Positions 7,846 through 51,505 of a stretch of 64,000 nucleotides of DNA are shown in pieces. Under the pieces are notes generated by a model. The model had not been told where the DNA came from and did no database searches. It saw only the letters and a program-made list of their open reading frames with translations. The first letter of the stretch is position 1, and each line of letters opens with the position of its first letter. Origin of the DNA: an uncultured Gammaproteobacteria bacterium (GTDB taxonomy: Bacteria; Pseudomonadota; Gammaproteobacteria; Steroidobacterales; MnTg04). The position numbers and the translations under genes are program-made. Where the stretch lies: positions 22,016 through 86,015 of the forward strand of contig CAZMOM010000009.1 in NCBI GenBank assembly GCA_964568075.1, in the 5' to 3' direction.

Positions 7846-8313
7846 TCAGGCGATCACGGCGGTCACGATCATTTTCTCAAGTTTATCCAGATCGGGGACC
7901 AACGGGTGTTCATTAATCATGCGCAATTGGCAGAGGACCGGCGCATTTTTATTTCGCTTATCGTCAGGCTCAGTACTCAATACTCCCGGGTTTACTCTGA
8001 CCAGCTGTGGAAATCCCTGGCTGACGATGGCAAAACAGCCTCCGGGCATATCCCCGCCGGCCGCGTAAAAAATGACTATCCTGCTGCGCCTGCCGGTTTC
8101 AGGAATAGAGTCGCCACAACACCCTTCAAAAGATACGACCGGCACCAGCCTGCCATTCCAGCGAATCCCACCAAGGCACCAAGGTTGGTCACTATTCATT
8201 GGCTCCGGCCCGGAAAACCCGACCACCTCGGCAACGCATGCTCTCGGCACCAGCAATCTCTTCTCCGAGAGCGGTATCAGCAGGCTGTACAACTCCTGCA
8301 CCGGCTCATTCAT
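7846..8313 (-). CDS. chpC: CheW-like protein (ChpC)
   Basis: LLIPL..RLLVPRACVAEV and LGGIRWNGRLVPVVSFE. Last gene of the pil-chp operon. Confidence 0.8.
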   Translation of the reverse strand: MNEPVQELYSLLIPLSEKRLLVPRACVAEVVGFSGPEPMNSDQPWCLGGIRWNGRLVPVVSFEGCCGDSIPETGRRSRIVIFYAAGGDMPGGCFAIVSQGFPQLVRVNPGVLSTEPDDKRNKNAPVLCQLRMINEHPLVPDLDKLEKMIVTAVIA

Positions 8314-13583: not shown

Positions 13584-15637
13584 ACCTGCGCTACTTCGTC
13601 TTGATCATCGTCAACCTTCAGTACGTCGATCATGTTGGCATTTTTCACCGGAGACCCTTTCGCTTTCTCACTCTTTTTTGTCACGATCGAAGCTGCCTTA
13701 TCGTCGGGCAGCGTAAAACCAGCCACGGATCGGCGCAAATTTTTCGCCAGTTCAGCCAGTTTGCGTATCGATTCGGAAGTCGCGTTGGTGCTATCCGCTG
13801 TTTGCTCGCTGATTTCCCTGAGTACGCCGGTGTTGCGCATAATATCAGTTGCGACCAGCGCCTGCTGCTTCGCAGAGCTGGAAATATTTTGCACGAGCGA
13901 CGCAATCTGATTGGAAACCTGCTCTATTTCCTCCAGCGCCGCGCCGGCATTCTCAGCAAGCAAAGCCCCGCCGACGACATCCGTTGTGCTTCTCTCCATC
14001 GACACGACGGCTTCACTCGTATCCGACTGGATGGTTCTGACCAGCACCTCGATCTGTTTGGTAGCATTTGCCGACCTTTCTGCGAGCCGTTGCACCTCAT
14101 CAGCAACGACCGCGAACCCTCTGCCGGCTTCACCCGCCATACTTGCCTGGATCGATGCGTTGAGTGCGAGAATATTAGTTTGCTCTGCGATGTCGTTGAT
14201 CAGTTCGACGATATTGCCGATCTCCTGCGAACTCTCGCCGAGCCGTTTGATCCGCTTAGAAGTGTCCTGAATCGTTTCGCGAATCGAGTTCATTCCCTCA
14301 ATGGTTCGACGGACTGCAACGCCTCCTTTTAGAGCGACGTCGACCGAGTGCCTGGCGACATCTGCCGCCCGCTCTGCGTTTCCCGACACCTCTTCAACCG
14401 AGTTAGCCATCCGGGCGATCGAGTCCGAGGCCGCGCCTACTTGCTGAGCCTGCGTTTCGCTGGCTGCCGCCAGGTGACCGATCGTTGCCGCCGACTGCGT
14501 CGCGGCGGCTTCCACCATGATCGCGGAATCTTTGATCGTCGTAACGAGATTTCGTAAAGCTTCGATTGCGAAATTAATCGAATCGGCAATCGCTCCGGTA
14601 ATATGTTCGGTTACCGTAGCCTGCACGGTCAGGTCCCCATCGGCAAGGCTGCCCAGTTCATCCAGCAAGCGAAGTATCGCCTCCTGGTTACGCTCATTTT
14701 GACGCGCATGCTCTTCCGCAACCCGCTGAACATTAGCGGACGAGAAATAAAGGGTGACCAGTCCGGCGAGTATAAGCAACGCCAGCACCAGGATCGTGAT
14801 ATTCAGCGCCGGGCTGGCCAGCAAACCGCCTGCGGGCCCAGCCTGACTAACCGCTGTATCGATCTGCCCGCGCAAACGATCGGCGGCGGGCTCCAGGTCC
14901 GATCGTGCCTGCTGTGCCCTGACGCTGGCCGCGACGCCAGCAGTTGCTGCCTGCAAGACAGGCTCGAAAGCCAGGTAAGCCTGGCGAATCTCATCCGCCG
15001 TCCGGCCGCCAATGTCCCGGTCGTTCAGCAGCCCATTCATGACTTCCGTCAGGTCGCGCATGCCCCCATCAAGCCGCAACCGCGCTTCTTGCAAACTGAT
15101 CTGGTCTGTTTCAAGCGCCTTCAATGCGCCTCTGACCGACCTGCCGATATCGACAGCCTTTTGCAAGCCGTCGTACTGAGACTGCCAGCGGCTTCCCAGC
15201 AGTGTCGCAGACATCCGGTCCAGGGCCGTTGCAAAATCCCTAGCGCCTTCCTCGCCCTGTTTCGTCGAGTCGGCGAACGTACTTACCTGCTCCTGTCCGC
15301 CCAGCAAGTCGCCGACAGCCCCGTCCAGAATCTGCCAGTCGCTGTCGTCGCCCGACTGCAAACCGATGCCGGGCAGATCGTCTCTGGCTGATAAAATCTG
15401 CTGATAGTCATCGGCCAGCTCACGATAAGCCGTTGCGTCGCCAGCGCTGGCTCTTTCGGCCGTTGTCGCCAGTGACCCGAGACGGTCCCTTAACAGACTC
15501 GCGCTCAGCGCTCTTGACTGCGTTATTCCCTGCGCCCGGTTACCCAAAACCGCAGTCAGCAGAGCCAGGATCAGCATCAGGCTCAGAGCCCCCATCAGCA
15601 CCGGCAATCTCATCACAGCGTCTAATTTATCTAGCAT
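13580..15637 (-). CDS. pilJ: methyl-accepting chemotaxis protein PilJ
   Basis: Two TM segments, HAMP (LADGDLT) and MCP signalling tip (IAEQTNILALNASIQA..AGEAGRGFAVVADEV). Start re-called to ATG 15637, downstream of pilI. Confidence 0.92.
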   Translation of the reverse strand: MLDKLDAVMRLPVLMGALSLMLILALLTAVLGNRAQGITQSRALSASLLRDRLGSLATTAERASAGDATAYRELADDYQQILSARDDLPGIGLQSGDDSDWQILDGAVGDLLGGQEQVSTFADSTKQGEEGARDFATALDRMSATLLGSRWQSQYDGLQKAVDIGRSVRGALKALETDQISLQEARLRLDGGMRDLTEVMNGLLNDRDIGGRTADEIRQAYLAFEPVLQAATAGVAASVRAQQARSDLEPAADRLRGQIDTAVSQAGPAGGLLASPALNITILVLALLILAGLVTLYFSSANVQRVAEEHARQNERNQEAILRLLDELGSLADGDLTVQATVTEHITGAIADSINFAIEALRNLVTTIKDSAIMVEAAATQSAATIGHLAAASETQAQQVGAASDSIARMANSVEEVSGNAERAADVARHSVDVALKGGVAVRRTIEGMNSIRETIQDTSKRIKRLGESSQEIGNIVELINDIAEQTNILALNASIQASMAGEAGRGFAVVADEVQRLAERSANATKQIEVLVRTIQSDTSEAVVSMERSTTDVVGGALLAENAGAALEEIEQVSNQIASLVQNISSSAKQQALVATDIMRNTGVLREISEQTADSTNATSESIRKLAELAKNLRRSVAGFTLPDDKAASIVTKKSEKAKGSPVKNANMIDVLKVDDDQDEVAQV

Positions 15638-15650
15638 TGATTTTCCCGTC

Positions 15651-16232
15651 TCAGGACGCCGCCGCTCCCGAGTCCGCCGCATTCAAAAACTCGTCGCTGT
15701 CGATCAGGCTTTGCAAACTAAGCACAGGCCAGACCTCGCCGCCTTGCTCAAAACTGCCTTGCAGATAGCGATCACACCTGATCACGGTCCTGGGTACTTC
15801 CTTGCGGCGCTGGTTTTCAGGGAAGCGCCTGAAGCCAAGCACTTCGTCCACCAGCAGGCCGACCGGCACATCGCGGTGGTTGACCGACAAGACCCTGGCG
15901 AGGCGGCTGTTCGCTGCGATGCCACCGCCAAAAAAATGATTGATATCAACCAGCGGCAATAGCTGTCCACGGATATTGGCCAGTCCGCGAAGCCAGCGTT
16001 TCGCGCCTGGCACCCTGGCGATATCGGTCGGTACGGTCAGAACCTCGCGAATCTCGTCCCTTGGCACCAGGAACTGCTCGTCACCCAGGCGAAATCCGAT
16101 GCCGACATATTCAGCATGCTGTTGATCGACATTACCGCCGCCCGCCGCGGAAGAAAGTGCACGCCGCTCCATTTCCTGCAGCAGCTCGAACGGTCTGTTG
16201 ATCAGTGTGCTGAGGTCGGTTGATTTCGACAT
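15651..16232 (-). CDS. pilI: CheW-like adaptor PilI
   Basis: GIGFRLG, RVPGAKRWLRGLANIRGQLLPLVD, GLLVDEVLG. Lies between pilH and pilJ. Confidence 0.9.
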   Translation of the reverse strand: MSKSTDLSTLINRPFELLQEMERRALSSAAGGGNVDQQHAEYVGIGFRLGDEQFLVPRDEIREVLTVPTDIARVPGAKRWLRGLANIRGQLLPLVDINHFFGGGIAANSRLARVLSVNHRDVPVGLLVDEVLGFRRFPENQRRKEVPRTVIRCDRYLQGSFEQGGEVWPVLSLQSLIDSDEFLNAADSGAAAS

Positions 16233-23213: not shown

Positions 23214-24269
23214 TCAGCCAAAATTGATTTTTGTTTCAAGATTGGTTCGCGAATCTGCATTGGCAAGCGCTTCCTCGAGATCGATTCGCCCATCCCGGAA
23301 AAGGCTATATAGCGCGGTATCGAAATCCTGTATACCGGCCTCGTCGCTATTTGACAGGGCTTCCTTGACGCCCGATATGTCTCCCTTCAGCGTCAGCTCG
23401 GCGATGTGCGGCGTTTGCAGCATCACTTCGACCGCGGCGACACGCCGCTTGTCTTTGCCCATGACCAGCCGCTGGGAAATAACCGCTTTCAGGTAATGGG
23501 ACAAGTCCATGAATATTTGCTTTTGCTGCTCGACCGCATACAGATTGATGATTCGGTCAAGCGTCTCCGGTGCATTGTTGGCATGCAGGGTTGCGATGGC
23601 GAGGTGTCCTGTGCCGGCCAGTGTCAGTGCCGCGTTCATCGTCAGGCGATCGCGTATTTCACCTATCTGAATCACATCAGGGGCGGCTCGCATCGCGCTA
23701 CGCAGAGCGACTTCATATGATTTCGTATCCAGACCCAGCTCACGCTGATTAATAATGCACTTCCGGTTGGGGTGAAGAAATTCGATAGGGTCTTCAATGG
23801 TAATAATATGTTCGGACACACTTTCGTTACGATGATTGACCATCGCGGCCAGGGTTGTTGACTTACCCGAGCCCGTTGCGCCGACCATCAGAATCAGGCC
23901 ACGTTTGATCATCGCCAGTTTTTTTAACACCAGCGGCAAGCCGAGATCGTCCAACCGCGGCATTTCAGACGTTACATAGCGCAACACCATGGCCACGTTG
24001 CCGCGCTGGTGAAAAACATTAGCCCTGAACCGCCCGAGGCCTGGTTCCGATATGGCGAAATCGACTTCCAAGTGTTTGTTGAAATGCTCGATCTGCTCTT
24101 CGTTCATCAAGCCAAGCGCGGCCTGTTTGACCATCTTTGGTGTCAGCTCGATCTTGTTAACACTCATGATGCGGCCCTCGATCTTGATTTTGACCGGCGC
24201 ATAGGTAGTGAAAAACAAGTCTGAGGCGCTTTTTTCCACCATCAGTTTAAAAAGTGGTTTGGTGTTCAT
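23214..24269 (-). CDS. PilU-like type IV pilus retraction ATPase (second paralog)
   Basis: ASDLFF, Walker A GATGSGKSTT, TIEDPIE, Walker B DVIQIGEIRD, His box TLHAN, DRIIN, EAL.NADS. Confidence 0.9.
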   Translation of the reverse strand: MNTKPLFKLMVEKSASDLFFTTYAPVKIKIEGRIMSVNKIELTPKMVKQAALGLMNEEQIEHFNKHLEVDFAISEPGLGRFRANVFHQRGNVAMVLRYVTSEMPRLDDLGLPLVLKKLAMIKRGLILMVGATGSGKSTTLAAMVNHRNESVSEHIITIEDPIEFLHPNRKCIINQRELGLDTKSYEVALRSAMRAAPDVIQIGEIRDRLTMNAALTLAGTGHLAIATLHANNAPETLDRIINLYAVEQQKQIFMDLSHYLKAVISQRLVMGKDKRRVAAVEVMLQTPHIAELTLKGDISGVKEALSNSDEAGIQDFDTALYSLFRDGRIDLEEALANADSRTNLETKINFG

Positions 24270-24325: not shown

Positions 24326-25477
24326 CTAGCGTTCATCACCGACCACCGAGAGATCTTCCGCTGCGGCATCGCCGGACGATGAATCACGATTACTTTCAAG
24401 TTTGATGCGCAGACGCAGCTCATTCTTGGAATCGGCGTTGCGCATCGCGTCGTCATGGGAAATCGTGGCGGATTCATACAGGCTAAACAGCGCCTGATCA
24501 AATGTCTGCATGCCCAGCCGGTTCGATTTGGCCATAATTTCCTTTAACTGATGGACTTCACCGCGGAGTATCAGGTCGTTGACCAACGGTGAGGCCAGCA
24601 AGATTTCCATCGCCGCGACGCGGCCCTTGGTGCCTTCGCGCGGAATTAATCGTTGCGAGATCAACGCTATGATATTCAAAGACAAATCCATCAGCAACTG
24701 ACTGCGCCGTTCATCCGGAAAGAAGTTAATGATGCGATCCAGCGCCTGGTTGGAACTGTTTGCATGTAAGGTCGCCAGGCACAAGTGACCGGTTTCGGCA
24801 AACTGGATCCCATATTCCATGGTTTCGCGATCCCGGATTTCGCCGATCAATATGACATCGGGCGCCTGGCGTAAAGCATTTTTCAGAGCGAAGTGCCACG
24901 ATTCCGTGTCTACGCCCACCTCACGCTGAGTGACGACGCAACTCACGTGCGAATGCACATACTCGACCGGGTCCTCGATCGTAATGATGTGCCCATGAGT
25001 GTTGGCGTTGCGATAACCGATCATCGCGGCCAGTGTCGTCGATTTACCCGAACCGGTGCCGCCGACGATAATGGCCAGTCCGCGCTTGTTCATCACGACG
25101 TCGCTCAGTTGACTTGGCAGTTCGAGTTCATCTAGCGTGGGGATCCTGGTAACAATCGTTCTGAGCACGGCGCCGGTGTAGCCCTGCTGAACAAAGGCGC
25201 TTACCCGAAAACGGCCTATACCTTTCGGGTTGATCGCGAAATTACATTCCCTGGTGGAATCGAATTGCCGGGTTTGCTTGTCGTTCATAATCGACCGTAC
25301 GATCAGCGCACTTTGTTCGGAGCTCAACGCCTTTTCCATCACCGGCATTACCTCGCCGTCGACTTTGATCGCCGGCGGAAATCCTCTGGTAATAAACAAA
25401 TCAGAACCATTCACCTGAATCATGCGGCGAAGCAGATCCTGCATCAGCTTGGTCGCTTGTTCCCGTTCCATTGCCAT
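24326..25477 (-). CDS. pilU: type IV pilus retraction ATPase PilU
   Basis: GSDLFIT.GFPP, GGTGSGKSTT, TIEDPVE, ALRQAPDVILIGEIRD, TLHANSSNQALDRIINFFP, RNADSKNELRL. Confidence 0.93.
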   Translation of the reverse strand: MAMEREQATKLMQDLLRRMIQVNGSDLFITRGFPPAIKVDGEVMPVMEKALSSEQSALIVRSIMNDKQTRQFDSTRECNFAINPKGIGRFRVSAFVQQGYTGAVLRTIVTRIPTLDELELPSQLSDVVMNKRGLAIIVGGTGSGKSTTLAAMIGYRNANTHGHIITIEDPVEYVHSHVSCVVTQREVGVDTESWHFALKNALRQAPDVILIGEIRDRETMEYGIQFAETGHLCLATLHANSSNQALDRIINFFPDERRSQLLMDLSLNIIALISQRLIPREGTKGRVAAMEILLASPLVNDLILRGEVHQLKEIMAKSNRLGMQTFDQALFSLYESATISHDDAMRNADSKNELRLRIKLESNRDSSSGDAAAEDLSVVGDER

Positions 25478-25496: not shown

Positions 25497-26543
25497 CTAA
25501 ATGGTTTCCTTGTTGGCAGCCTTGAACCTGGCCTCTTCCTTGCTGACCATGCCCATCCGGGTCAGGTCCTGAAGACATTGGTCCAGCGTTTGCATACCCA
25601 TGTTCTGACCGGTCTGAATCGCCGAATACATCTGCGCGATTTTACCTTCGCGAATCAGGTTTCTGATCGCGGGCGTACCGATCATGATTTCATGCGCCGC
25701 GATCCGGCCACCGCCGATCTTTTTCAGCAAAGTTTGTGAAATGACGGCACGTAGTGATTCGGACAGCATGGATCGCACCATTTCCTTTTCTTCCCCCGGA
25801 AAGACGTCAACGATCCGATCGATCGTCTTGGCGGCTGAACTCGTATGCACCGTACCGAAAACGAGGTGGCCTGTTTCCGCCGCGGTCAGGGCCAGCCGGA
25901 TGGTTTCCAGGTCACGCATTTCGCCGATAAGAATGACATCCGGATCCTCACGCAAAGCAGAGCGCATCGCCTCGTTGAAACCCAGCGTGTCACGGTGTAC
26001 CTCGCGCTGGTTGATCAGTGCGCGACGGCTCTCGTGCACAAATTCGATCGGGTCCTCGATGGTAATAATATGATCCGGCTTGTTGTCGTTGATATAGTCG
26101 ATCAGTGCGGCCAGCGTAGTTGATTTGCCGGACCCCGTCGGTCCGGTCACCAGCACCAGCCCTCTCGGGTACATGGCCACATCTTTGAAAATTTTTGGCG
26201 CCTGCAAATCCTCCAGCGACAAGATTTCCGACGGAATGGTTCTGAATACGGCAGCCGCTCCCCGATGCTGGTTATAGGCATTTACGCGGAACCGGGCCAG
26301 CTGCGGAATCTCAAAGGAAAAGTCGGTTTCGAAGAATTCCTCATAATCCTTACGCTGCTTGTCATTCATGATGTCGTAAATCATCGCGTGCACGTCTTTA
26401 TGGGACAATGCGGGCATATTGATTCGTTTTACGTCACCATCCACTCGGATAAGCGGCGGCATTTCTGCTGACAAATGAAGGTCTGACGCCTTATTTTTCA
26501 CCGAAAACGTCAAGAGTTGTGCAATATCAGCAGCCACATTCAA
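25497..26543 (-). CDS. pilT: type IV pilus retraction ATPase PilT
   Basis: DIAQLLTFSVKNKASDLHLS, GPTGSGKSTT, ALREDPD, AIRNLIRE and GMQTLDQ. Likely start GTG 26537. Confidence 0.97.
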   Translation of the reverse strand: MNVAADIAQLLTFSVKNKASDLHLSAEMPPLIRVDGDVKRINMPALSHKDVHAMIYDIMNDKQRKDYEEFFETDFSFEIPQLARFRVNAYNQHRGAAAVFRTIPSEILSLEDLQAPKIFKDVAMYPRGLVLVTGPTGSGKSTTLAALIDYINDNKPDHIITIEDPIEFVHESRRALINQREVHRDTLGFNEAMRSALREDPDVILIGEMRDLETIRLALTAAETGHLVFGTVHTSSAAKTIDRIVDVFPGEEKEMVRSMLSESLRAVISQTLLKKIGGGRIAAHEIMIGTPAIRNLIREGKIAQMYSAIQTGQNMGMQTLDQCLQDLTRMGMVSKEEARFKAANKETI

Positions 26544-26637
26544 ATTCCTGTAGTCAAAGCGTCAAATACGGTAATTCTGGCCCATAACTGTCTAAAACCA
26601 GCGATGCTCAGTATAGCGAACCCAGCTTAAGTAAAAC

Positions 26638-27324
26638 ATGACGAACGTCACACAGAATATGTCGGGACTGACACTGCGAATCCGGCGGGCTTGCGAAAAC
26701 AGTGGCCGCGACCCGGATTCGGTCAGGCTGCTGGCGGTCAGCAAGAAAAATCCGGCGGCAGCAATAAGAACGGCCTTTGCCGCCGGTCAGATCGATTTTG
26801 GGGAAAATATCGTCCAGGAGGCGCTGGTCAAGCAAAAACAACTCCGGGACCTACAGATCGAATGGCATTTTATCGGTCGCATTCAAAGCAACAAGACGCG
26901 CGATATCGCTGCCGCTTTCAGCTGGGCGCACGGTGTCGATCGGCTTCGTGTTGCCAAACTGCTGAATAAGTACCGGCAACCGGATCAACCACGGTTAAAT
27001 ATCTGCCTGCAGGTCGCGTTGGCCGATGAGCCGGGGAAATCCGGCGTGAAGCCGGATGCGCTGGTGACCCTCGCTGGCGAAATCGCTGACTTACCGCGTC
27101 TGCGACTGAGAGGGCTCATGTGTATTCCGCCACCGTCCGCGGATCCGGCCCGGCAGCGCCACTGGTTTGCACGGCTCGCTGAAATGCGCGACCAGCTGAA
27201 TGGCCAGGGCTTTGCCCTGGACACCTTATCGATGGGAATGAGCAATGATCTTGAGGCGGCGATCGCCGAGGGAGCGACATTGATCAGGATTGGGACGGCA
27301 TTTTTTGGCGCACGGCCAGGCTGA
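26638..27324 (+). CDS. yggS: PLP homeostasis protein (YggS/PipY)
   Basis: LLAVSKK (PLP Lys), FGEN..QE, WHFIG.IQSNK, LRGLMCIP, LSMGMSND, RIGTAFFG. Confidence 0.95.
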   Translation: MTNVTQNMSGLTLRIRRACENSGRDPDSVRLLAVSKKNPAAAIRTAFAAGQIDFGENIVQEALVKQKQLRDLQIEWHFIGRIQSNKTRDIAAAFSWAHGVDRLRVAKLLNKYRQPDQPRLNICLQVALADEPGKSGVKPDALVTLAGEIADLPRLRLRGLMCIPPPSADPARQRHWFARLAEMRDQLNGQGFALDTLSMGMSNDLEAAIAEGATLIRIGTAFFGARPG

Positions 27325-36914: not shown

Positions 36915-37709
36915 ATGAAGCAGATCAGCGGGAGACAAGCATTGCTGACCGGTGCGACCGGAGGTCTCGGGCCATATATTGCCAAGACGCTGGCCGGGCA
37001 GGGAGTCAACCTTTTACTGACGGGCCGGCGCCGGGAATTATTGGAAGAGATTGCAGAAGGATTGCGAACGGATTCGGTCAACGTGGAATTTATCGTCGCC
37101 GATCTTGCCAATGATGACGACCGGCTGGCGTTGGCGAGCAAGGCCGCCGGTACCGATATTCTGATCAATAACGCCGGGCTGGAAGTGGTGGCGGCTTACC
37201 AGAACCAGGATCCGGCGGAGATTACCGCTAGCGTGCTGACCAACGTCCTCGCGCCGTTGTTGCTGACTCGTGAGTTGCTGCCCGGGATGCTGGAGAGAAA
37301 GTCTGGCCATATCATCAATATCGGGTCGCTGGCCGGTCGGCTGGGCATGCCTTATGGAAGCACCTATTCAGGTACCAAGGCAGCGCTCTCCGAATGGGGA
37401 TTATCGCTTTGGGTCGAGCTGCAGGGTACCGGCGTCGGTATCACCACTATCTGCCCGGGATTCGTCACCGATGTGGGCTTGTTCGCGCGCAAAGAGCGGC
37501 TCGCGCCGCGCAGTCTGGGAAGTTGTACGCCGGATCAGGTCGCAAACGCTGTACTGCGAGCCTTGAGTTCCAATAAGCCGGAAATAATGGTCAACAGTAT
37601 GCCGGTCAGACCGCTGATGGCGATCAAAAGTATCAGCCCGAATATGGCGATGAGTCTTGGCAATAGGCTGGGACTGGTTAAGTTCCTCCGCTCTTTGACC
37701 GAGCGATAA
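36915..37709 (+). CDS. short-chain dehydrogenase/reductase
   Basis: TGATGGLG, LINNAG, catalytic YSGTK. AGGAG RBS before ATG 36915. Confidence 0.9.
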   Translation: MKQISGRQALLTGATGGLGPYIAKTLAGQGVNLLLTGRRRELLEEIAEGLRTDSVNVEFIVADLANDDDRLALASKAAGTDILINNAGLEVVAAYQNQDPAEITASVLTNVLAPLLLTRELLPGMLERKSGHIINIGSLAGRLGMPYGSTYSGTKAALSEWGLSLWVELQGTGVGITTICPGFVTDVGLFARKERLAPRSLGSCTPDQVANAVLRALSSNKPEIMVNSMPVRPLMAIKSISPNMAMSLGNRLGLVKFLRSLTER

Positions 37710-37730
37710 TTTGAGAAAAGAGTGACGGGT

Positions 37731-37749
37731 TTACCGGCCCGGCCGGTAA
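37731..37749. terminator. near-perfect palindrome between convergent genes, probable terminator
   Basis: TTACCGGCC-C-GGCCGGTAA. No long U-tract. Confidence 0.45.
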
Positions 37750-37766
37750 TCGTATTGCGGAAGGAT

Positions 37767-37973
37767 TCAGTCGGTTTTTTTCTGGCCAGCCAGTTTCGCC
37801 AAATAAGGATCGCCGATTATTTCGTCGATCCGCGAGTCGCTGATTAGCGGGTCACTCTTTTCGGTTTTGGCGTTTTTTACCGCACTCATCTTTTTTTTCT
37901 GCGCGGCCGTCACTGGATCGTTTATCAGGCGGCTGCGATAACCGCGTCGTTCATTGTCGGCCGTCTTTTTCAC
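37767..37973 (-). CDS. small basic hypothetical protein (68 aa)
   Basis: GTG start with GGAG 7 nt upstream, directly behind a class II CRP-type promoter. Confidence 0.6.
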   Translation of the reverse strand: MKKTADNERRGYRSRLINDPVTAAQKKKMSAVKNAKTEKSDPLISDSRIDEIIGDPYLAKLAGQKKTD

Positions 37974-37997
37974 GCTCTTCTCCGGTTGAATCCGGAT

Positions 37998-38040
37998 AGT
38001 TTATGTTTTCGCGTAATGCCGTTATGTGACACACGTCACA
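37998..38040 (-). promoter_or_regulatory. class II CRP/Vfr-type promoter
   Basis: Perfect TGTGA-CACACG-TCACA (38025-38040), centred -41.5 relative to -10 TAAACT (38003-37998); predicted TSS 37991. Confidence 0.8.
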
Positions 38041-38060
38041 CCATTACCGGCTATCGGAAC

Positions 38061-38204
38061 TTATCCGAGTCTGAGGTACAGAAGTCCGGCGCAGTATACT
38101 GCCACACCACCGAGGAATAATAGCCGCGGCAAGGTTCCTATCCAAAAAACAAAACCGGCGACCAGATCCTCCAGTTCATCAAGGCATTGTACGATCACTT
38201 CCAT
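38061..38204 (-). CDS. small membrane protein (47 aa), not in ORF track
   Basis: AAGGAG RBS. MEVIVQCLDELEDLVAGFVFWIGTLPRLLFLGGVAVYCAGLLYLRLG*: acidic amphipathic N-terminus plus a hydrophobic segment. Confidence 0.7.
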   Translation of the reverse strand: MEVIVQCLDELEDLVAGFVFWIGTLPRLLFLGGVAVYCAGLLYLRLG

Positions 38205-38257
38205 GTCAACTCCTTCACCGGATCCATAAATTCATCGGGGACACAAGCAAGCAGGTT

Positions 38258-38428
38258 TCAGACGAACCTTGACCGGTCAGGGCATTCAATTACAGGCAGC
38301 TTCCCGCGACCCATAGACGAATTTTGTTCGACCGATCTGGTCGCCGCCGCTATCGCGTTCGCCACCCAGGTTTTCCTGTCCATCTTCAATGGCTTCGAAT
38401 CCTGCCGCTTGGAAGATTGGTTACTCAT
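38258..38428 (-). CDS. small hypothetical protein (56 aa), not in ORF track
   Basis: GGAG 10 nt upstream of ATG. MSNQSSKRQDSKPLKMDRKTWVANAIAAATRSVEQNSSMGRGKLPVIECPDRSRFV*. First ORF after a class II CRP-type promoter. Confidence 0.5.
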   Translation of the reverse strand: MSNQSSKRQDSKPLKMDRKTWVANAIAAATRSVEQNSSMGRGKLPVIECPDRSRFV

Positions 38429-38465
38429 CGATGCTTCGCTCCAGAAAAATCAGCTTCCGAAGACG

Positions 38466-38508
38466 ACTTTAGTGAACCTGTTAGCTGTTCACTGTGTTGC
38501 AGTTCACA
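38466..38508 (-). promoter_or_regulatory. class II CRP/Vfr-type promoter
   Basis: TGTGT-TGCAGT-TCACA (38493-38508; minus strand TGTGA-N6-ACACA), centred -41.5 relative to -10 TAAAGT (38471-38466); predicted TSS 38459. Confidence 0.72.
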
Positions 38509-38592
38509 AAGGCAATAAGTCCTTACCAATGCTCTGAACATAATCCCCGAATAGCTTTTTTGCCGGCTCAATCTAGCGTATCGTTCGGTGTC

Positions 38593-39273
38593 ATGAAGAA
38601 GATCGTCGTGTTGAACCCGAAAGGCGGATCAGGCAAAACGACAATTGCCACCAACCTCGCGGCGTATTACGCGACCCAGGGACTGGAGCCGACCTTGATG
38701 GATATGGATCGTCAGGGCTCGAGCATGCACTGGCTTAGCAAACGGTTTGCCGATCTACCTGTAATACATGGTATCGCCGCTTTCGAAAACCCAGCGCGAG
38801 TAACCAAAAGCTGGCAAATGCGCATCCGTCCGGAGTCCCGGAGAATCATTGTCGATACGCCGGCGGCGATAGACCCACAGCTGTTGCCGGAGATTACCCG
38901 CGGTGCACAGGCCATTCTGATTCCAGTTGTGCCATCGGATATCGATATATATGCGGCCACAAATCTGATCAGAAATCTTTTGCTGGTTGCCAGGATCAGG
39001 CGCAGCGACGGGAGAATTGGTGTTTTGGCCAACCGCGTGAAAAGCAATACGTTAATTTACCAGTCGCTAATGCGGTTCCTGCGAAATTTGAGAATTCCAA
39101 TCGTCGGCGTGTTGAGGGACTCGCAAGTCTATGTCCGTTGCGCCGAGCAGGGAATCGGGATTCACGAATTGCAACCACACCAAGTGCGTAAGGATCTCGA
39201 TCAATGGAAATCAATTCTGAGCTGGGAAAAGGGCAGACCCTCTAACGCGATGAATTCGGTGGGAGTGGTCTGA
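38593..39273 (+). CDS. orphan ParA/MinD family ATPase
   Basis: Deviant Walker A NPKGGSGKTT, DMDRQGS, IVDTPA, IPVVPS.ID. No parB adjacent. Start re-called to ATG 38593. Confidence 0.88.
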   Translation: MKKIVVLNPKGGSGKTTIATNLAAYYATQGLEPTLMDMDRQGSSMHWLSKRFADLPVIHGIAAFENPARVTKSWQMRIRPESRRIIVDTPAAIDPQLLPEITRGAQAILIPVVPSDIDIYAATNLIRNLLLVARIRRSDGRIGVLANRVKSNTLIYQSLMRFLRNLRIPIVGVLRDSQVYVRCAEQGIGIHELQPHQVRKDLDQWKSILSWEKGRPSNAMNSVGVV

Positions 39274-39282
39274 GCGATTCGT

Positions 39283-39510
39283 TTATTGGTCGGTCGAATC
39301 AGAATCCCAGTCTTTTTTAATCTGGGCTATCCAGTCCTTGTAACCTTGCAGCGTATAAACCGAGCTGTCGGCCATAACGCGGCGGCCGCGGGTCCCGGCT
39401 ACCTGACCCAGCCAGCTTCGGTAAGCGGCCCAGCCTTCTTCGTCGGCCCGTGCAGACCTGCGGACATCCTGCCACTCTGTTTCTACGCGTTTCGTGTCGC
39501 GCTCACCCAT
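39283..39510 (-). CDS. small Trp/Tyr-rich hypothetical protein (75 aa)
   Basis: AGGA RBS before ATG 39510. Contains two similar helical motifs (WAAYRSWLGQV, QGYKDWIAQI). Confidence 0.65.
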   Translation of the reverse strand: MGERDTKRVETEWQDVRRSARADEEGWAAYRSWLGQVAGTRGRRVMADSSVYTLQGYKDWIAQIKKDWDSDSTDQ

Positions 39511-39540
39511 ACTACCATCCTGGTGACAACCCGAGCGTTT

Positions 39541-39583
39541 ACAGTAATTGGACCCCCGGTCCCAAGACAGGAACTGGTTCACA
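39541..39583 (-). promoter_or_regulatory. possible class II CRP/Vfr-type promoter (one perfect half-site)
   Basis: Minus strand TGTGA-ACCAGT-TCCTG (39583-39568), centred -41.5 relative to TACTGT (39546-39541); predicted TSS 39534. Confidence 0.5.
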
Positions 39584-39720
39584 ATCGAGCTTACCTGAAC
39601 TTATTGATTTTCATAGTATTATTGTAAAACAGCGATCCGTATGAGGGTCCATTCCGGAACCGGTGCGTAGCAAACCCGGTAGCGTCGTCAGCCTCGTCTG
39701 ACAACATTGCCAGTTTCGCA

Positions 39721-40233
39721 TCAGGGGAGGATTTCGATCGGCGTGTTCGCTTTTGTCATTGTCCAGATATCCATCATGTCCGGATTCGAGACCGCAATAC
39801 AACCATCGGTCCAGTCCCATTCCGCGTAGTACTCCCGGCCGTGCCGCTTCTCATTTGGCACACCATGAATCATGATATTTCCACCCGGTGAAGCGCCTTG
39901 CCGGTGTGCTTCGGAGATATCATTCTGGCTGGGGTAACTGATATGGATGGAAAGAAAGTAATCGCTGTTAAGGTTACGATCATCCAGCACATAAGACCCT
40001 TCCGGTGTTCGGAAATCGCCCTCGCTGGTTTTGTCTCCGTCCGGTACCAATCCGAGGCGTATTTCGATCGCCTTGAGAATTCGCTGGTCCCTGATCAGGA
40101 AAAGTTTACGCTGTGATTTGAGCACCAGAACCCTGTCAGCCATCCAGTCCGGATCATCCTGATTGGATGGAATGGCGACCATGACAGGCAATACCAGAAG
40201 GAACAATAACCTTCGAATAGTCTGCGTCGCCAC
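39721..40233 (-). CDS. L,D-transpeptidase family protein (YkuD/YafK-like)
   Basis: VLVLKSQRKL, GDFRTPEG.Y, SIHISYP, GGNIMIHG, DWTDGCIAV (His/Cys dyad). Confidence 0.9.
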   Translation of the reverse strand: MATQTIRRLLFLLVLPVMVAIPSNQDDPDWMADRVLVLKSQRKLFLIRDQRILKAIEIRLGLVPDGDKTSEGDFRTPEGSYVLDDRNLNSDYFLSIHISYPSQNDISEAHRQGASPGGNIMIHGVPNEKRHGREYYAEWDWTDGCIAVSNPDMMDIWTMTKANTPIEILP

Positions 40234-45127: not shown

Positions 45128-46495
45128 TCAGCCAACGAATGGCTCGTAGAAAGTACTCGTAAACCGGTTTTCCTTGTCCACATTCCTGCGCAGGCGCTTA
45201 AAGGTCACCAGATTCTGGCCGAGACCTTTTGCAGCCTGCCGCGAAGACAGCATTTTGGTTTGATTCAGGAGCGGAATACCGTTATTGGATGAGCAGAAAT
45301 CGTTGAACTCAAGCAGAAAATCATCCCAGTTTGTGCCGCCGCTGCAAAAGACGTCAAGCGTAAACACATCCGTCTTGCCGGCGTACGATAACAAACTGCC
45401 AGGGTCCCGCGGTACGAGCACCGATTTGGTGGGAAGATCGCAACGAAATCCGTGATCGCGCTCAAACTGGCGACAGAAATTCACGTATCGCTCTACCAGT
45501 GCCGGAAAGCCCTCGGACGGAAACGCCCAGGTCGTATATGTACATCTCGCCCACGTCGGCATACGGCACCGCGGCAAACACACAGCCGACATATCGGCCG
45601 TGCGGCCGTCGGTAAATTTGGTCATCATTTGTTGTGCGCCAAAAAGCAAAAAGTCCAGCTGCTTACCGCGCAGCCCGCTGATCGGGACCAGTTTCTTTAA
45701 TATTTGTGCAACAAAGGGCGCGAAACAATTCCAGCCCCAGGCACGAATCGTCGGCAACCGCTGACGCCTTTTCCTGACCAGTTTGCTGGATCGCCTCGTT
45801 TCCATATGGACTTTTCCGCTAAACGGATAAATCGTCAATTTGATTCCGGCGCCATCTGCACCGACACTCCTCAATGCCAGCGGCAAATCTTCGACGACCG
45901 CCCGCCGATGTTTGACCGAGAACCCGATTTTCTCGCGAACCGCAAAAGTCACCTCATAGACAATACCCATCAGCCCAAAACTGCTGCGCATCACATTGAG
46001 CATTTCCGGTTGCTTGGCCGTCAGGTTTAGTTGCGTTCCTTGTGGCGTTACCAGCTTCATGCCGACGACGGTCGAGGAAAGCTGCCCGAGTATCCCCTGG
46101 GTCGCCACATAACGGTTCGAGGTGCAGGCCACGCTGCCGACGCTTATATCGCCGAATTCCGGACATGCACAAAGCTGCAGACCACGATTGTCCAGCGCCT
46201 GAACCAGATCATAAATCCTTACGCCAGCCTGCACGCGGACATGTCGCTGGCCATATTCGAGTATGCGATCGAAGTCGCGCATATCGACGATCGTGCCGCC
46301 GTCAGCGACGGCGCACCGGGTAATTGAGTGCTGGAACCCGACCGCTCGTACGGGTGATGGGTATTTTTTCAGGTTGTTGACGATCTCAATCAGTTCCGAC
46401 ACACGGTGAGGTTTAACCACAATCCGGGGGCGACTGATTGCCGAACCTTCCCAGTTGACCGCTATTCCGCGACGGTTCTTGATTGTGGCTTCCAT
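45128..46495 (-). CDS. FAD-binding oxidoreductase (VAO/aldonolactone oxidase-like)
   Basis: NWEG, RAVGFQHS (covalent-flavin His position), V.VQAG, SSFGLMGIVYEVT. AGGAG RBS. Confidence 0.8.
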   Translation of the reverse strand: MEATIKNRRGIAVNWEGSAISRPRIVVKPHRVSELIEIVNNLKKYPSPVRAVGFQHSITRCAVADGGTIVDMRDFDRILEYGQRHVRVQAGVRIYDLVQALDNRGLQLCACPEFGDISVGSVACTSNRYVATQGILGQLSSTVVGMKLVTPQGTQLNLTAKQPEMLNVMRSSFGLMGIVYEVTFAVREKIGFSVKHRRAVVEDLPLALRSVGADGAGIKLTIYPFSGKVHMETRRSSKLVRKRRQRLPTIRAWGWNCFAPFVAQILKKLVPISGLRGKQLDFLLFGAQQMMTKFTDGRTADMSAVCLPRCRMPTWARCTYTTWAFPSEGFPALVERYVNFCRQFERDHGFRCDLPTKSVLVPRDPGSLLSYAGKTDVFTLDVFCSGGTNWDDFLLEFNDFCSSNNGIPLLNQTKMLSSRQAAKGLGQNLVTFKRLRRNVDKENRFTSTFYEPFVG

Positions 46496-46559: not shown

Positions 46560-46602
46560 ATAATACGTGGACGGATATGCACCAAATGTGACGCGGTTCG
46601 CA
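46560..46602 (-). promoter_or_regulatory. class II CRP/Vfr-type promoter for the FAD oxidoreductase
   Basis: AAA-TGTGA-CGCGGT-TCGCA-TT (core 46587-46602), centred -41.5 relative to -10 TATTAT (46565-46560); predicted TSS 46553. Confidence 0.78.
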
Positions 46603-47622: not shown

Positions 47623-48021
47623 CTATTCGGGACCAGGGATATTCGGGCAGGGCAGGCTACCGGAACAGCTGGACTGGTCCAGGCAGTCCCGGTTCATTTG
47701 CTGCAGTTCATCCGCCGCCAGGTGCAATTGATCAATTTTCTGCAATATCTCAGCGTGTTTATTTTCCAGAATTCGACTCACAGCGTGGCAATCATTCTGG
47801 CTCACTTCAAGCAAACCGGTGACTTCCCGCAGTGTAAACCCAAGCGTTTTCAGACGCCGTATAAAAAGCAGCCGTTCCACCGTTTTTTCGGTATAAAAGC
47901 GAAAACCGCCACTCTTCGGTGGCTCCTTTACCAGTCCTATGCGCTGGTAATAACGAATTGTTTCAACATTGATACCAACTTGGCGCGCTACAGTTCCAAT
48001 CGTCGGCTGATTTCTGCTCAT
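47623..48021 (-). CDS. MerR family transcriptional regulator (metal-responsive type)
   Basis: TIG.VA..VG..VETIRYYQRIGL HTH, GFTLRE, Cys78/113/119/125. Confidence 0.88.
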   Translation of the reverse strand: MSRNQPTIGTVARQVGINVETIRYYQRIGLVKEPPKSGGFRFYTEKTVERLLFIRRLKTLGFTLREVTGLLEVSQNDCHAVSRILENKHAEILQKIDQLHLAADELQQMNRDCLDQSSCSGSLPCPNIPGPE

Positions 48022-48163: not shown

Positions 48164-48874
48164 TCAGCCGCACTTGGAATCCCCGCAATTAAGACAGGTC
48201 ATGCACCCGTCCAGGCGTACGAGGGCGACCGTGTTGCACTTGGCGCACAATTGGGCTCCCTCGGGAAATTCACTTTTTGCAAAAGCATCGGCTTGCTTGC
48301 TTTGCTCGATAAATTCTTCCCGTTTTTCCTCAATCATTTTCTTCTGATGTTCGTCCAGGTCCGTCTTGGCCAGCAAGCCGATCTTTTGCAAATGCCTTTC
48401 GATGACATGTCCGAGTTCCGCAATCACCGACGGCATATATTTACCGCCCGGCAGCCAGTAACCACCACGCGGATCGAAAACCGCTTTCATTTCCTCGACC
48501 AGAAACGTTACATCTCCGCCTTTGCGAAAAACCGCCGACATCATTCGGGTCATCGCGACGATCCATTGGAAATGATCAAGATTTTTCGTGTTGATAAAAA
48601 TTTCGAAGGGTCTGCGGCCTTCGTGTTCTGTTCCGGCATTCAAAACGATGTCGTTTATGGTTACGTACATCGCATGATCCATGACCGGGCTTTTCAGCTT
48701 GTAAGTAGAGCCTTCCAGCGTTTCAGGCCGCTCAAGCTTTTCGTGCATACGCACGACTTTGGGTTTTGCTTCCTGCTTCCTCTCGGCACCTCCAGCCGCC
48801 CGGCCGCCGTCCTGCATATCGGCCTTAGCGACCCGATAGTTAACAATTTTCCCTTTAATTTGCACGGGTTTCAT
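48164..48874 (-). CDS. nrdJb: class II ribonucleotide reductase small C-terminal subunit (NrdJb/TSCPD)
   Basis: HEKLERPETLEGSTYK, RPFEIFIN, SAVFRKGGDV, C-terminal CAKC...GCMTCLNCGDSKCG. Confidence 0.9.
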   Translation of the reverse strand: MKPVQIKGKIVNYRVAKADMQDGGRAAGGAERKQEAKPKVVRMHEKLERPETLEGSTYKLKSPVMDHAMYVTINDIVLNAGTEHEGRRPFEIFINTKNLDHFQWIVAMTRMMSAVFRKGGDVTFLVEEMKAVFDPRGGYWLPGGKYMPSVIAELGHVIERHLQKIGLLAKTDLDEHQKKMIEEKREEFIEQSKQADAFAKSEFPEGAQLCAKCNTVALVRLDGCMTCLNCGDSKCG

Positions 48875-49214: not shown

Positions 49215-51362
49215 TCAGAATTTCCCGTAATAGCCCTCTTTCAATGCATCGAAAAGATTGGCGGCGCTATGAATTTCGCCGTCGTACTCGATCTCTTCGT
49301 TGCCCTTCAACTCCATTTCCGATCCGTCTTCCAGAGTAAAAACATAGGTCGTGTTTTGCAGGTCTTTTTCCTTGACCAGCACTCCCTGGAAAGCCTCCGG
49401 ATTGAAACGGAACGTCGTACAGCCCTTTAGTCCTTTCTCATGGGCATAAACATAAATGTCCTTGAACTCCTCGTACGAAAAGTCTGTCGGCACATTCGCT
49501 GTTTTCGAAATTGATGAATCCACCCATTTCTGGGCTGCCGCCTGAATATCCACATGCTGGCACGGCGCAATATCCTCGGCCGTCGTGAAATAATCCGGCA
49601 ATTTGTTTTCCGGGGTCTCCGCTGCGGCATCGGCGTTGGGATTCACCATTTCCCGATAGGCCAGCAACTCAAAAGAATAAACGTCTATTTTTTCTTTCGT
49701 CTTGCGTCCTTCCTTGACGACATTCCGAAAATAATGGTGTGCAAAAGTCGGTTCAATTCCATTACTCGCGTTATTAGCAAGCGACAGCGAAATAGTTCCC
49801 GTCGGGGCAATTGAGCTGTGGTGGGTAAAGCGACTGCCCACTTCGGCCAGCTCTTCAACCAGTTCCGGAGCTACTTCCGCTATTTTCTGCATGTAACGGC
49901 TGTAACGTGCGTGCAATATCTTGCCGGGAATCTGGGCACCGAGCTGCCAGCCATCGCGCTTCATTTTCGGTCGTTTGCGCAGCATTTCCGGCGTGACCGT
50001 GAAAACCTTGCTCATGACGGGTGCAGGACCCTTCTCTCGGCTCAACTCCAACGCAGTCTCCCAACCAGCCAGAGCCAATTCCCTGGCAACATTCTCCGTG
50101 AAATCCACTGATTTCTCGTCGCCGTACCGCATGCCCATCATCGTCATCGTCGATCCAAGACCAAGAAACCCCATGCCGTGTCGACGCTTGTTCATAATTT
50201 CGTCACGCTGTTTGCCAAGTGGCAAGCCATTGATTTCTACAACATTATCGAGCATTCGGGTGAATACCTTGACGACGCGGCGATATTCATCCCAGTCAAA
50301 GCCTGCATTGGGTGTGAACGGGTCGTTTACAAATCGCGTCAGATTGACTGAGCCAAGCAGACAAGAACCATAGGGAGGCAGCGGCTGTTCGCCGCAGGGA
50401 TTAGTCGCCCGAATATTTTCCGTCCACCAGTTGTTGTTCAGTTCATTGACCCGGTCAATGAGAATGAACCCCGGCTCCGCGAAGTCGTATGTGGAGCTCA
50501 TAATAACGTCCCACACACGTTGCGCCGGAATGGTTTTATAAATCAGGCAGGCAACCAGGCCATCATCGTTACGGACAAAATCGCCTTCGCCGGGCCATTC
50601 TCGCCAGATATATTTGCTACTGTCCTGTAAATCAAGATTTTCTTTAACCGCTTCCCGCCTGCTCACGGGAAATGCGAGATGCCACGGCTTGTCTTCCCGG
50701 ACAGCCTGCATGAATTCATCTGTGATCAGCAGCGATAAATTAAACTGGCGGAGACGCCCGGCTTCACGTTTGGCGCGAATAAAGTCGAGTACGTCAGGAT
50801 GGCCAATATCGAACGTGCCCATTTGTGCGCCCCGCCTTCCGCCGGCAGAGGACACCGTGAAACACATCTTGTCATAGACGTCCATGAAGGAAAGCGGCCC
50901 TGACGTATAGGCTCCTGCGCCAGACACATAAGCTCCGCGCGGTCTCAACGTCGAAAACTCATAACCGATGCCGCAACCGGCCTTCAGCGTCATGCCGGCT
51001 TCTTTTACCTTATCCAGTATTTCGGACATCGAGTCATTAATGGTTCCGGACACAGTGCAATTAATAGTCGAGGTGGCCGGCTTGTGCTCTATCGCACCGG
51101 CGTTGGAGATGATGCGTCCAGCCGGTATGGCGCCCTTGCGTAACGCCCAGATAAACCTTTCGGCCCAGTATTCCTGTTTTTCCGGAACCTCAACAGCGGC
51201 GAGCGCCCCAGCCACCCGCTGATAGGTATCGTCCAACTCCTGGTCGAGGATTGTGCCGTCTTTCGTTTTGAGCCTGTATTTGGTATCCCAAATATCCAGA
51301 GAGGCTGTCTGAAAAGTAATCTCACCCACGTCCCTTGGATCGATTTTTCTCGCTGTTTTCAT
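49215..51362 (-). CDS. nrdJa: adenosylcobalamin-dependent ribonucleoside-diphosphate reductase (class II) large subunit
   Basis: PAGRI.SNAG, TINCTVS, RRGAQMG, ATNPCGEQPL, CLLGSVNL, RRHGMG, SIAPTGTIS, KGCTTFR. No intein seen. Start re-called to ATG 51362. Confidence 0.95.
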   Translation of the reverse strand: MKTARKIDPRDVGEITFQTASLDIWDTKYRLKTKDGTILDQELDDTYQRVAGALAAVEVPEKQEYWAERFIWALRKGAIPAGRIISNAGAIEHKPATSTINCTVSGTINDSMSEILDKVKEAGMTLKAGCGIGYEFSTLRPRGAYVSGAGAYTSGPLSFMDVYDKMCFTVSSAGGRRGAQMGTFDIGHPDVLDFIRAKREAGRLRQFNLSLLITDEFMQAVREDKPWHLAFPVSRREAVKENLDLQDSSKYIWREWPGEGDFVRNDDGLVACLIYKTIPAQRVWDVIMSSTYDFAEPGFILIDRVNELNNNWWTENIRATNPCGEQPLPPYGSCLLGSVNLTRFVNDPFTPNAGFDWDEYRRVVKVFTRMLDNVVEINGLPLGKQRDEIMNKRRHGMGFLGLGSTMTMMGMRYGDEKSVDFTENVARELALAGWETALELSREKGPAPVMSKVFTVTPEMLRKRPKMKRDGWQLGAQIPGKILHARYSRYMQKIAEVAPELVEELAEVGSRFTHHSSIAPTGTISLSLANNASNGIEPTFAHHYFRNVVKEGRKTKEKIDVYSFELLAYREMVNPNADAAAETPENKLPDYFTTAEDIAPCQHVDIQAAAQKWVDSSISKTANVPTDFSYEEFKDIYVYAHEKGLKGCTTFRFNPEAFQGVLVKEKDLQNTTYVFTLEDGSEMELKGNEEIEYDGEIHSAANLFDALKEGYYGKF

Positions 51363-51505
51363 AGCCCGGTCTTGAGTCCCCTTTACATGCGATGACAGGC
51401 ATCGCTTTTTGATTTTTGCCGCTCTGTAGTCCATTACTTTTGGGCTGGCGGTTGTTTTTCCCGGTTCCTGACTGATTTTTGGCAAAATTGCTGGCAATCA
51501 GGAAA

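Follow-up and report, generated by a model that had tools for sequence, protein, structure and literature searches.

In a 64,000-nucleotide stretch of DNA from an uncultured gammaproteobacterium (contig CAZMOM010000009.1; here referred to as the window) we analyzed a gene for an orphan ParA/MinD-family ATPase and four small genes located around it. With moderate confidence we regard this group as a conserved chromosomal orphan-ParA module which includes two undescribed small-protein families and has class II CRP-type promoters on its small genes. As far as the sequences can tell, the core of the module looks like a real, undescribed and signal-gated unit that recurs in at least 80 uncultured gammaproteobacteria of soil and sediment. 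The genes of the module in the window are (aa, amino acids; RBS, ribosome-binding site):

37767-37973, minus strand: s68, 68 aa, basic, GTG start with GGAG RBS and its own box (box 1)
38061-38204, minus strand: s47, 47 aa, acidic helix at the N-terminus (MEV.VQCLDELEDL), hydrophobic tail
38258-38428, minus strand: s56, 56 aa, basic, first gene of a probable s56-s47 operon
38593-39273, plus strand: parA, orphan ParA/MinD-family ATPase of 226 aa with the deviant Walker A motif KGGSGKTT at residues 10-17
39283-39510, minus strand: s75, 75 aa, ATG start, convergent with parA

All comparisons of the parA locus are based on 80 loci that were returned by a scan of species-representative genomes. Five of them (L001-L005) belong to uncultured Gammaproteobacteria, 'MnTg04' among them, and encode a ParA 84-86% identical to that of the window. 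The ParA of L006 is 62% identical. The remaining, more distant loci (56-61%) are mainly metagenome-assembled genomes of Steroidobacteraceae.

Boxes and predicted promoters of the small genes

Three boxes of the CRP type were found, each with a predicted -10 hexamer and a predicted transcription start site (TSS):

38025-38040: box 1, TGTGACACACGTCACA, no mismatch to the CRP-type palindrome TGTGA-N6-TCACA
37998-38003, minus strand: TAAACT, predicted -10 of the s68 promoter; 21-nt spacer to box 1; TSS at ~37991
38493-38508: box 2, TGTGTTGCAGTTCACA, one mismatch, in the divergent s56/parA intergenic region
38466-38471, minus strand: TAAAGT, predicted -10 of the s56-s47 promoter; 21-nt spacer to box 2; TSS at ~38459
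39568-39583: box 3, CAGGAACTGGTTCACA (minus strand TGTGAACCAGTTCCTG), three mismatches
39541-39546, minus strand: TACTGT, predicted -10 of the s75 promoter; 21-nt spacer to box 3; TSS at ~39534

At all three boxes the order on the minus strand was the same, namely the box, exactly 21 nt and TAnnnT, with the centre of the box at -41.5 from the predicted start. This position is the geometry for class II activation, in which a CRP-family dimer recruits RNA polymerase. Re-reading of the sequence confirmed the coordinates and mismatch levels which a preliminary description of this DNA had given for the three boxes. The counted 21-nt spacers likewise reproduced its centring at -41.5 on TAAACT, TAAAGT and TACTGT, with starts predicted at 37991, 38459 and 39534. 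In box 3 the left half-site was perfect and all three mismatches fell into the right half, TCCTG. A generic promoter scan detected no sigma-70 promoter with a good -35 element at the box sites, and a search of positions 37500-39900 against Rfam (E up to 1) gave no RNA family.

The preliminary description had considered the threefold repetition of this geometry hard to attribute to chance. We counted matches to the box alone and to the composite pattern (box, 21 nt and TAnnnT) within the 64 kb and compared them with the expectation and with 100 shuffles. At up to one mismatch the box alone was not significantly enriched in the window: three sites were present vs. 1.43 expected, and 15 of the 100 shuffles reached three. 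The composite pattern at up to one mismatch, however, gave four matches vs. 0.01 expected, a number that was reached in none of the 100 shuffles. In this form the claim stands, but it does not extend to box 3, which lies outside this statistic. Since the composite pattern at three mismatches occurs at chance level (12 matches vs. 8.9 expected), box 3 is supported by its conservation and not by the count. The missing enrichment of the box alone would fit the idea that boxes and hexamers are coincidental and the open reading frames (ORFs) spurious. The probability of this is negligible, as it is refuted by the composite statistic and by the conservation of the boxes over 80 loci. Ratios of nonsynonymous to synonymous substitutions (dN/dS) below 1, together with preserved starts and stops of the ORFs, also contradict it.

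When the window was aligned with L001-L006 by MAFFT, conserved islands amid diverged intergenic DNA appeared at each of the three boxes and at their -10 hexamers. Within such diverged DNA box 1 was kept in all six relatives, with TATTAT at the same spacing in L001. Box 2 was identical in L001-L004 and had one change in L005, despite a dS above 1 in the flanking genes, and its -10 region ACTTTAG was kept in L001-L005. An equivalent of box 2, CGTGAGTGGGATCACA, was present in essentially all distant loci. The exact motif [CT]GTGA-N6-TCAC[AG] occurred 69 times in the 640 kb of the 80 loci vs. about 2 occurrences expected from base composition, and every one of these 69 boxes sat between parA and the divergent s47-family gene.

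The s47-family promoters of the distant loci carried the box, 21-22 nt and TAnnnT (mostly TAGACT) in 56 of 70 cases. Here, 6-9 nt separated the end of the hexamer from the ATG, so that the mRNA may be leaderless. For the s75 family, [CT]GTGACACAGTTCCTG followed by 21 nt and TACTGT was found in 63 of 75 loci. The TACTGT itself was identical in 58 of the 63 scorable distant loci and was followed by a leader of ~19 nt with a GAGG motif. Even lineages with no more than 56-61% ParA identity to the window show the -41.5 geometry.

Additional palindromes were located around the module. In the Steroidobacteraceae loci (L007-L080) a second palindrome, TGAGATGCGCATCCCA (TGnGA-N6-TCnCA), was conserved ~51 nt (centre to centre) upstream of the box of the s75 gene; it was absent from the window's clade. 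Its position at about -92.5 gives a tandem arrangement resembling class III CRP promoters. Upstream of box 3, at ~39604-39613, another conserved palindrome reads TTGAAAATCAA in L001-L005 and TGAAAATCAA in the window, and its centre is ~33 nt from the centre of box 3. Between s68 and the convergent SDR gene lies a perfect inverted repeat (TTACCGGCC-C-GGCCGGTAA, 37730-37748), probably a shared terminator hairpin. A simple, generic terminator scan did not call this repeat and returned nothing informative around the module.

The ParA gene and the small-protein families

By its profile matches the ATPase belongs to the ParA/MinD family with deviant Walker A motif (Pfam CbiA 59.5 bits, cut-off 25.4; AAA_31 37.1 bits). 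Against NCBIfam NF041546 (ParA_partition, plasmid type Ib equivalog) it reached 107.4 bits, which is below the cut-off of 180. ParF and TP228 ParA were the nearest solved structures (E about 3e-9). In comparison with the relatives of the window parA had a dN/dS of 0.05; all dN/dS values against the window are rough because synonymous sites are saturated. The absence of parB reported in the preliminary description was confirmed. No parB-like gene adjoins parA and no ParB-like domain was detected among the neighbours scanned; the neighbours are genes for an SDR, a YkuD L,D-transpeptidase and an M49 peptidase. The gene downstream of parA is the convergent s75 and not a co-transcribed parB or parG. 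A plasmid origin of parA was rejected, with plasmid type Ib ParAs being only 30-34% identical (E about 1e-12) and the locus being syntenic and chromosomal in all relatives. A further orphan ParA with 36% identity over the full length (L166) is encoded on the Ralstonia syzygii megaplasmid NZ_CP115942.1 (477574-478209) between cobQ and panC.

The parA gene appears to have its own promoter, and the shared box seems to serve the divergent small gene. We infer this because the distance from the box to the ATG of parA varies among the loci (40, 57, 74 or 106 nt), whereas a conserved -35/-10 pair distinct from the box lies upstream of parA. In an alignment covering the upstream regions of 79 loci, parA of the distant loci was preceded by the conserved element CTTGCY...TGCGTAGGCT, about 8 nt from the ATG. 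The corresponding feature of the window is:

38577-38584, plus strand: candidate parA -10 region GCGTATCGT, with the conserved TGCGTAGGCT as its homologue in distant loci

This candidate region is located ~8 nt before the ATG, and the sequence suggests that the parA mRNA is leaderless. On the plus strand, CATAAT (38539-38544) and GCGTAT(C/G)GT (38577-38584) were kept in the window and in L001-L005. Box 2 was considered as a regulator of parA as well, but its spacing relative to the candidate parA starts, about -50 or -91 in the window's clade, varies in distant loci and no claim is made for it. The earlier proposal of one module around parA is therefore retained in part: the boxes of the small genes are conserved and have class II geometry, but parA seemingly uses a promoter of its own, the box being phased to the divergent small gene.

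All four small ORFs (sORFs) were present in L001-L005 with the same starts and stops, and L006 keeps all four in the same order. The dN/dS was 0.09-0.24 for s47, 0.14-0.23 for s75, 0.17-0.36 for s56 and 0.28-0.59 for s68. Judged by these alignments, all four sORFs are genuine genes, conserved and subject to purifying selection. This is in agreement with the preliminary description, which had presented them as ORFs of 68, 47, 56 and 75 aa with an RBS: all are kept in L001-L006, and their dN/dS values span 0.09-0.59. Its choice of the 75-aa ATG ORF was correct too. The alternative 99-aa GTG ORF (39283-39582), which runs over box 3, was discarded, as its N-terminal extension has in-frame stops in L001 and L002 as well as an indel. 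No Pfam or NCBIfam family was assigned to any of the four; the only domain match of a sORF, Phage_tail_APC with E = 0.041, was disregarded.

Based on the distribution across loci, s47 and s75 are two unannotated core families that travel with this ParA. Counted over 81 loci, an s47-family gene was divergent from parA in 70 and an s75-family gene was convergent with it in 75. Profile searches gave at least 494 database clusters for s47 (all 'hypothetical') and 2052 for s75 (all 'hypothetical protein'), in both cases without a Pfam family. Three s75 homologues taken from the database were convergent with a CbiA/ParA gene wherever the metagenome contig reaches the neighbour.

In distant loci the N-terminus of the s47 family reads MEW[VM]LQVVDE[VI]DDA with a hydrophobic tail after it. 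Within s47, the first 25 residues have a net charge of -4 to -5, and residues 28-42 form a transmembrane-grade segment with a Kyte-Doolittle hydropathy of 2.25. The s75 family follows the pattern ...RYTGVDRRAPR...GGRH.AIT..LY.WHSYK.WA.K.RG.W. Conserved features of s75 are an RR..R motif at the N-terminus, its RR being nearly invariant in the alignment, and a C-terminal helix with an invariant Y..GYK.W. An AlphaFold2 (AF2) model of s75, which was based on a 44-sequence alignment, had two helices and a mean predicted local distance difference test score (pLDDT) of 57. Most of residues 1-15 were below 50, and according to the model the N-terminus is probably disordered.

The remaining two genes encode proteins with a net charge of +6 each. 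s56 was conserved in L001-L006, and s68 has the conserved motifs YRS.L and DPYL in L001-L003 and L006. Both genes were found only in the window's clade and the clade of L006, a distribution by which they are lineage-specific additions and not core parts. In these clades s56 sits between s47 and parA, where it takes over the shared box (box 2), and no terminator was predicted between s56 and s47. Co-occurrence of the sORFs with the parA clade, whose absence the preliminary description had named as refuting its proposal, thus applies to s47 (70 of 81 loci) and s75 (75 of 81) but not to s56 and s68.

Beyond the s75 gene, ~68-72 of the loci L007-L080 carry a PpnN/YgdH-like gene and a gene whose product, ~235-240 aa long and with Cys motifs, is a DUF6901 (PF21842) protein. 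These two were not accepted as parts of the module: the Steroidobacteraceae loci have them next to it, whereas the window and L001-L005 lack both.

Boxes outside the module and the putative regulator

The same arrangement of box, 21 nt and hexamer occurs at two other genes of the window:

46560-46602, minus strand: box TGCGAACCGCGTCACA + 21 nt + TATTAT, upstream of a FAD-linked oxidase gene (45128-46495)
26610-26652, minus strand: weaker box TGTGACGTTCGTCATG (two mismatches) + 21 nt + TATACT, upstream of pilT (25497-26543)

The box at the FAD-linked oxidase gene (46587-46602) has one mismatch and is the third box of the window with up to one mismatch. Box, 21-nt spacer and -10 hexamer were kept in five of five relatives (L081-L085). 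We take its left half, TGCGA, to resemble half-sites of the 'CRP-S' type. At pilT, CGTGA-N6-TCACG with a -10 hexamer at 20-22 nt was found in ~18 of the 26 closest pilT loci, which come from several gammaproteobacterial lineages, Woeseiaceae and Chromatiales among them. Since the same geometry is conserved at these two genes, a trans-acting regulator of the CRP family (CRP, Vfr or Clp type) is favoured over an operator that is specific for the module.

Such an operator model would treat the palindromes as operator- or centromere-like sites which are bound by a small protein of the module, e.g. s75 as a ParG-like protein, and not by a global CRP factor. ParG, the partner of ParF, binds repeats upstream of parF. 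Repeated palindromes flank the type-Ib-like ParA of the window as well, whose nearest solved relatives are ParF and TP228 ParA, and every exact box of the 80 loci lies inside the module. We nevertheless consider this model very improbable. Both the FAD-linked oxidase gene and pilT have the box with its 21-nt spacing in conserved form, pilT also in other lineages (Woeseiaceae, Chromatiales), and the fixed -41.5 is the geometry of an activator. Additionally, there is no iterated repeat array, and the AF2 model of s75, itself of low confidence, has no ribbon-helix-helix (RHH).

In agreement with the preliminary description, the window contains a Pil-Chp-type cluster. It encodes a ChpA-like hybrid CheA with receiver domain (1757 aa, 8310-13583) and a PilJ-like methyl-accepting chemotaxis protein (700 aa, 13580-15682); pilT and pilU are found in the window, too. 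In Pseudomonas Pil-Chp feeds cyclic AMP (cAMP) to Vfr. Clp is the cyclic di-GMP (c-di-GMP)-responsive CRP homologue of Xanthomonas-type gammaproteobacteria; it recognises TGTGA-N6-TCACA, and type IV pilus genes of Lysobacter and Xanthomonas are under its control. The box motif cannot separate cAMP-CRP/Vfr from Clp, and the 64-kb window showed neither a vfr or clp nor a cyclase gene. With the architecture unchanged, the regulator could be a CRP homologue of the Clp type that c-di-GMP prevents from binding DNA, in which case the module would read c-di-GMP and not Pil-Chp, cAMP and Vfr. This is a possible reading, though in our opinion a less likely one. ParA similarity groups the lineage with Steroidobacteraceae and other uncultured Gammaproteobacteria and a box is present upstream of pilT, both of which are compatible with Clp, but the Pil-Chp cluster of the window would fit cAMP and Vfr.

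The genes pilU (24326-25477), a third pilT paralogue (23214-24269) and yggS (26638-27324) are located near pilT. Elsewhere in the window, genes for a MerR-family regulator (47623-48021), a TSCPD-domain protein (48164-48874) and a ribonucleotide reductase large subunit (Ribonuc_red_lgC, lgN; 49215-51497) adjoin and are unrelated to the module.

A regulon that takes in unrelated genes such as those for the FAD-linked oxidase and PilT also raises the question whether the small genes are mere neighbours of parA under the same CRP-type control, with no functional tie to the ATPase. They are located on the opposite strand with promoters of their own, s56 and s68 are confined to the two clades named above, and the Ralstonia relative of ParA (36% identity) lacks such sORFs. 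On the other hand, the s47 and s75 families stay directly beside ParA across clades with 56-60% ParA identity whereas the other neighbours change (DUF6901 and PpnN-like genes there, YkuD and M49 peptidase genes here). Furthermore, the independently drawn s75 homologues were found beside a ParA gene wherever the contig shows the neighbour. Taken together, we regard mere neighbourhood as rather improbable.

Proposed mechanism and comparison with known systems

Many ParA/MinD ATPases are called orphans because their partners are too small and too diverse to be recognised, and partner proteins of this family generally engage the ATPase via a charged, disordered N-terminus (PMC10241942). In the module proposed here, a sigma-70-type promoter belonging to parA would provide ParA constitutively. 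Synthesis of the candidate partners or adaptors would be restricted to times at which a cyclic-nucleotide-responsive regulator is active, with a CRP-family dimer (CRP, Vfr or Clp type) at -41.5 recruiting RNA polymerase to the small-gene promoters. By analogy with other ParA/MinD partners, s47 may act as a membrane tether of the system. By the same analogy s75, with its conserved Arg-rich N-terminal motif and its Trp/Tyr-rich C-terminal helix, may be a soluble, partly disordered adaptor whose charged N-terminus would stimulate the ATPase. In this scheme, the most economical one for the two peptides, we infer which regulator acts, that it activates and does not repress, to which effector it responds and that the peptides act on ParA.

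A more far-reaching picture would be a second-messenger-gated positioning by ParA, a constitutive ATPase that would pattern the nucleoid or the membrane and turn active only once the regulator has induced the small proteins, with s47 as anchor, s75 as stimulator and s56 and s68 as extras, co-regulated with pilT and coupling surface or nucleotide signalling to the placement of a cargo. We put this forward tentatively and hold it to be doubtful as a whole; the co-regulation of pilT is only a hint to the cargo.

Several observations weigh against the signal-gated module. The small genes are not co-transcribed with parA, so that synteny is the only tie by which they are linked functionally to ParA. 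Synteny is also all that speaks for the positioning or motility role suggested in the preliminary description. The right half of box 3, TCCTG, is conserved though non-consensus, an asymmetry not expected of a simple CRP site with two matching halves. Searching the 64-kb window and L001-L080 by tblastn with E. coli CRP gave no homologue. Finally, the AF2 model of s75 is of low confidence, and the first 25 residues of the s75 of the window have a net charge of -2 and are not positive.

Nevertheless, comparative genomics provides this orphan ParA with two concrete partner candidates, s47 and s75, which adjoin one clade of orphan ParAs common in Gammaproteobacteria of soil and sediment. If the proposal is true, the module would be an example of a ParA system that is licensed transcriptionally by a cyclic-nucleotide regulator. 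It would also define by sequence a regulon (the sORFs, pilT and the FAD-linked oxidase gene) of a CRP-family factor in an uncultured lineage. The regulatory logic is simple and testable: the partner genes would have class II promoters of the CRP type, and the ATPase gene a promoter to itself.

A literature search found no paper on such a module, nor on an orphan ParA under the control of cAMP, CRP or Vfr. Its parts can be compared with several known systems. The predicted promoters are like class II CRP-dependent promoters such as galP1 and melR of E. coli, which have a 16-bp TGTGA-N6-TCACA site at -41.5 and a TAnnnT -10 hexamer and lack a usable -35 element; in the window this likeness refers to predicted starts. 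They differ in the conserved asymmetric right half TCCTG of the s75 site and in that several of the targets seem to be sORF mRNAs which are leaderless or have short leaders.

With the type Ib system ParF-ParG of TP228, the closest solved structure, the module shares a small deviant-Walker-A ATPase without an N-terminal helix-turn-helix, and the candidate partner in the window is likewise small with a flexible, Arg-containing N-terminus. In contrast to ParF-ParG, the module is chromosomal and syntenic, its partner genes are divergent or convergent and do not form a parA-parB operon, no RHH fold is predicted and the NF041546 score is below the cut-off. As to a repeat centromere, the sequences showed no more than single palindromes at promoter positions, and unrelated genes carry the same box.

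The McdA-McdB system of carboxysome positioning, like ParA/MinD systems with adaptors in general, resembles the module in combining a ParA-type ATPase with a small, poorly conserved and partly disordered partner in which a Trp is conserved near the C-terminus. The module differs by the additional putative membrane peptide s47 and by the expression of the partner, which would be gated separately by a transcription factor. No carboxysome or microcompartment genes were found in the neighbourhoods examined (SDR, YkuD, M49 peptidase, FKBP, DUF6901 and PpnN-like genes), which does not support an McdAB system.

The CRP-type motif is common to the Vfr/Pil-Chp/cAMP system of Pseudomonas and to Clp of Xanthomonas and Lysobacter. 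Further parallels are the Pil-Chp cluster, pilT and pilU of the window and the conserved box upstream of pilT. We know of no ParA-plus-sORF module that has been reported in a Vfr or Clp regulon.

Finally, the betaproteobacterial orphan ParA of Ralstonia lacks s47 and s75 genes, and its surroundings contain no CRP-type boxes. However, it shares with the ParA of the window the C-terminal motif D.EQW..IL.W, a chromosome-like location and the absence of parB, which suggests a wider subfamily of chromosomal orphan ParAs in Betaproteobacteria.

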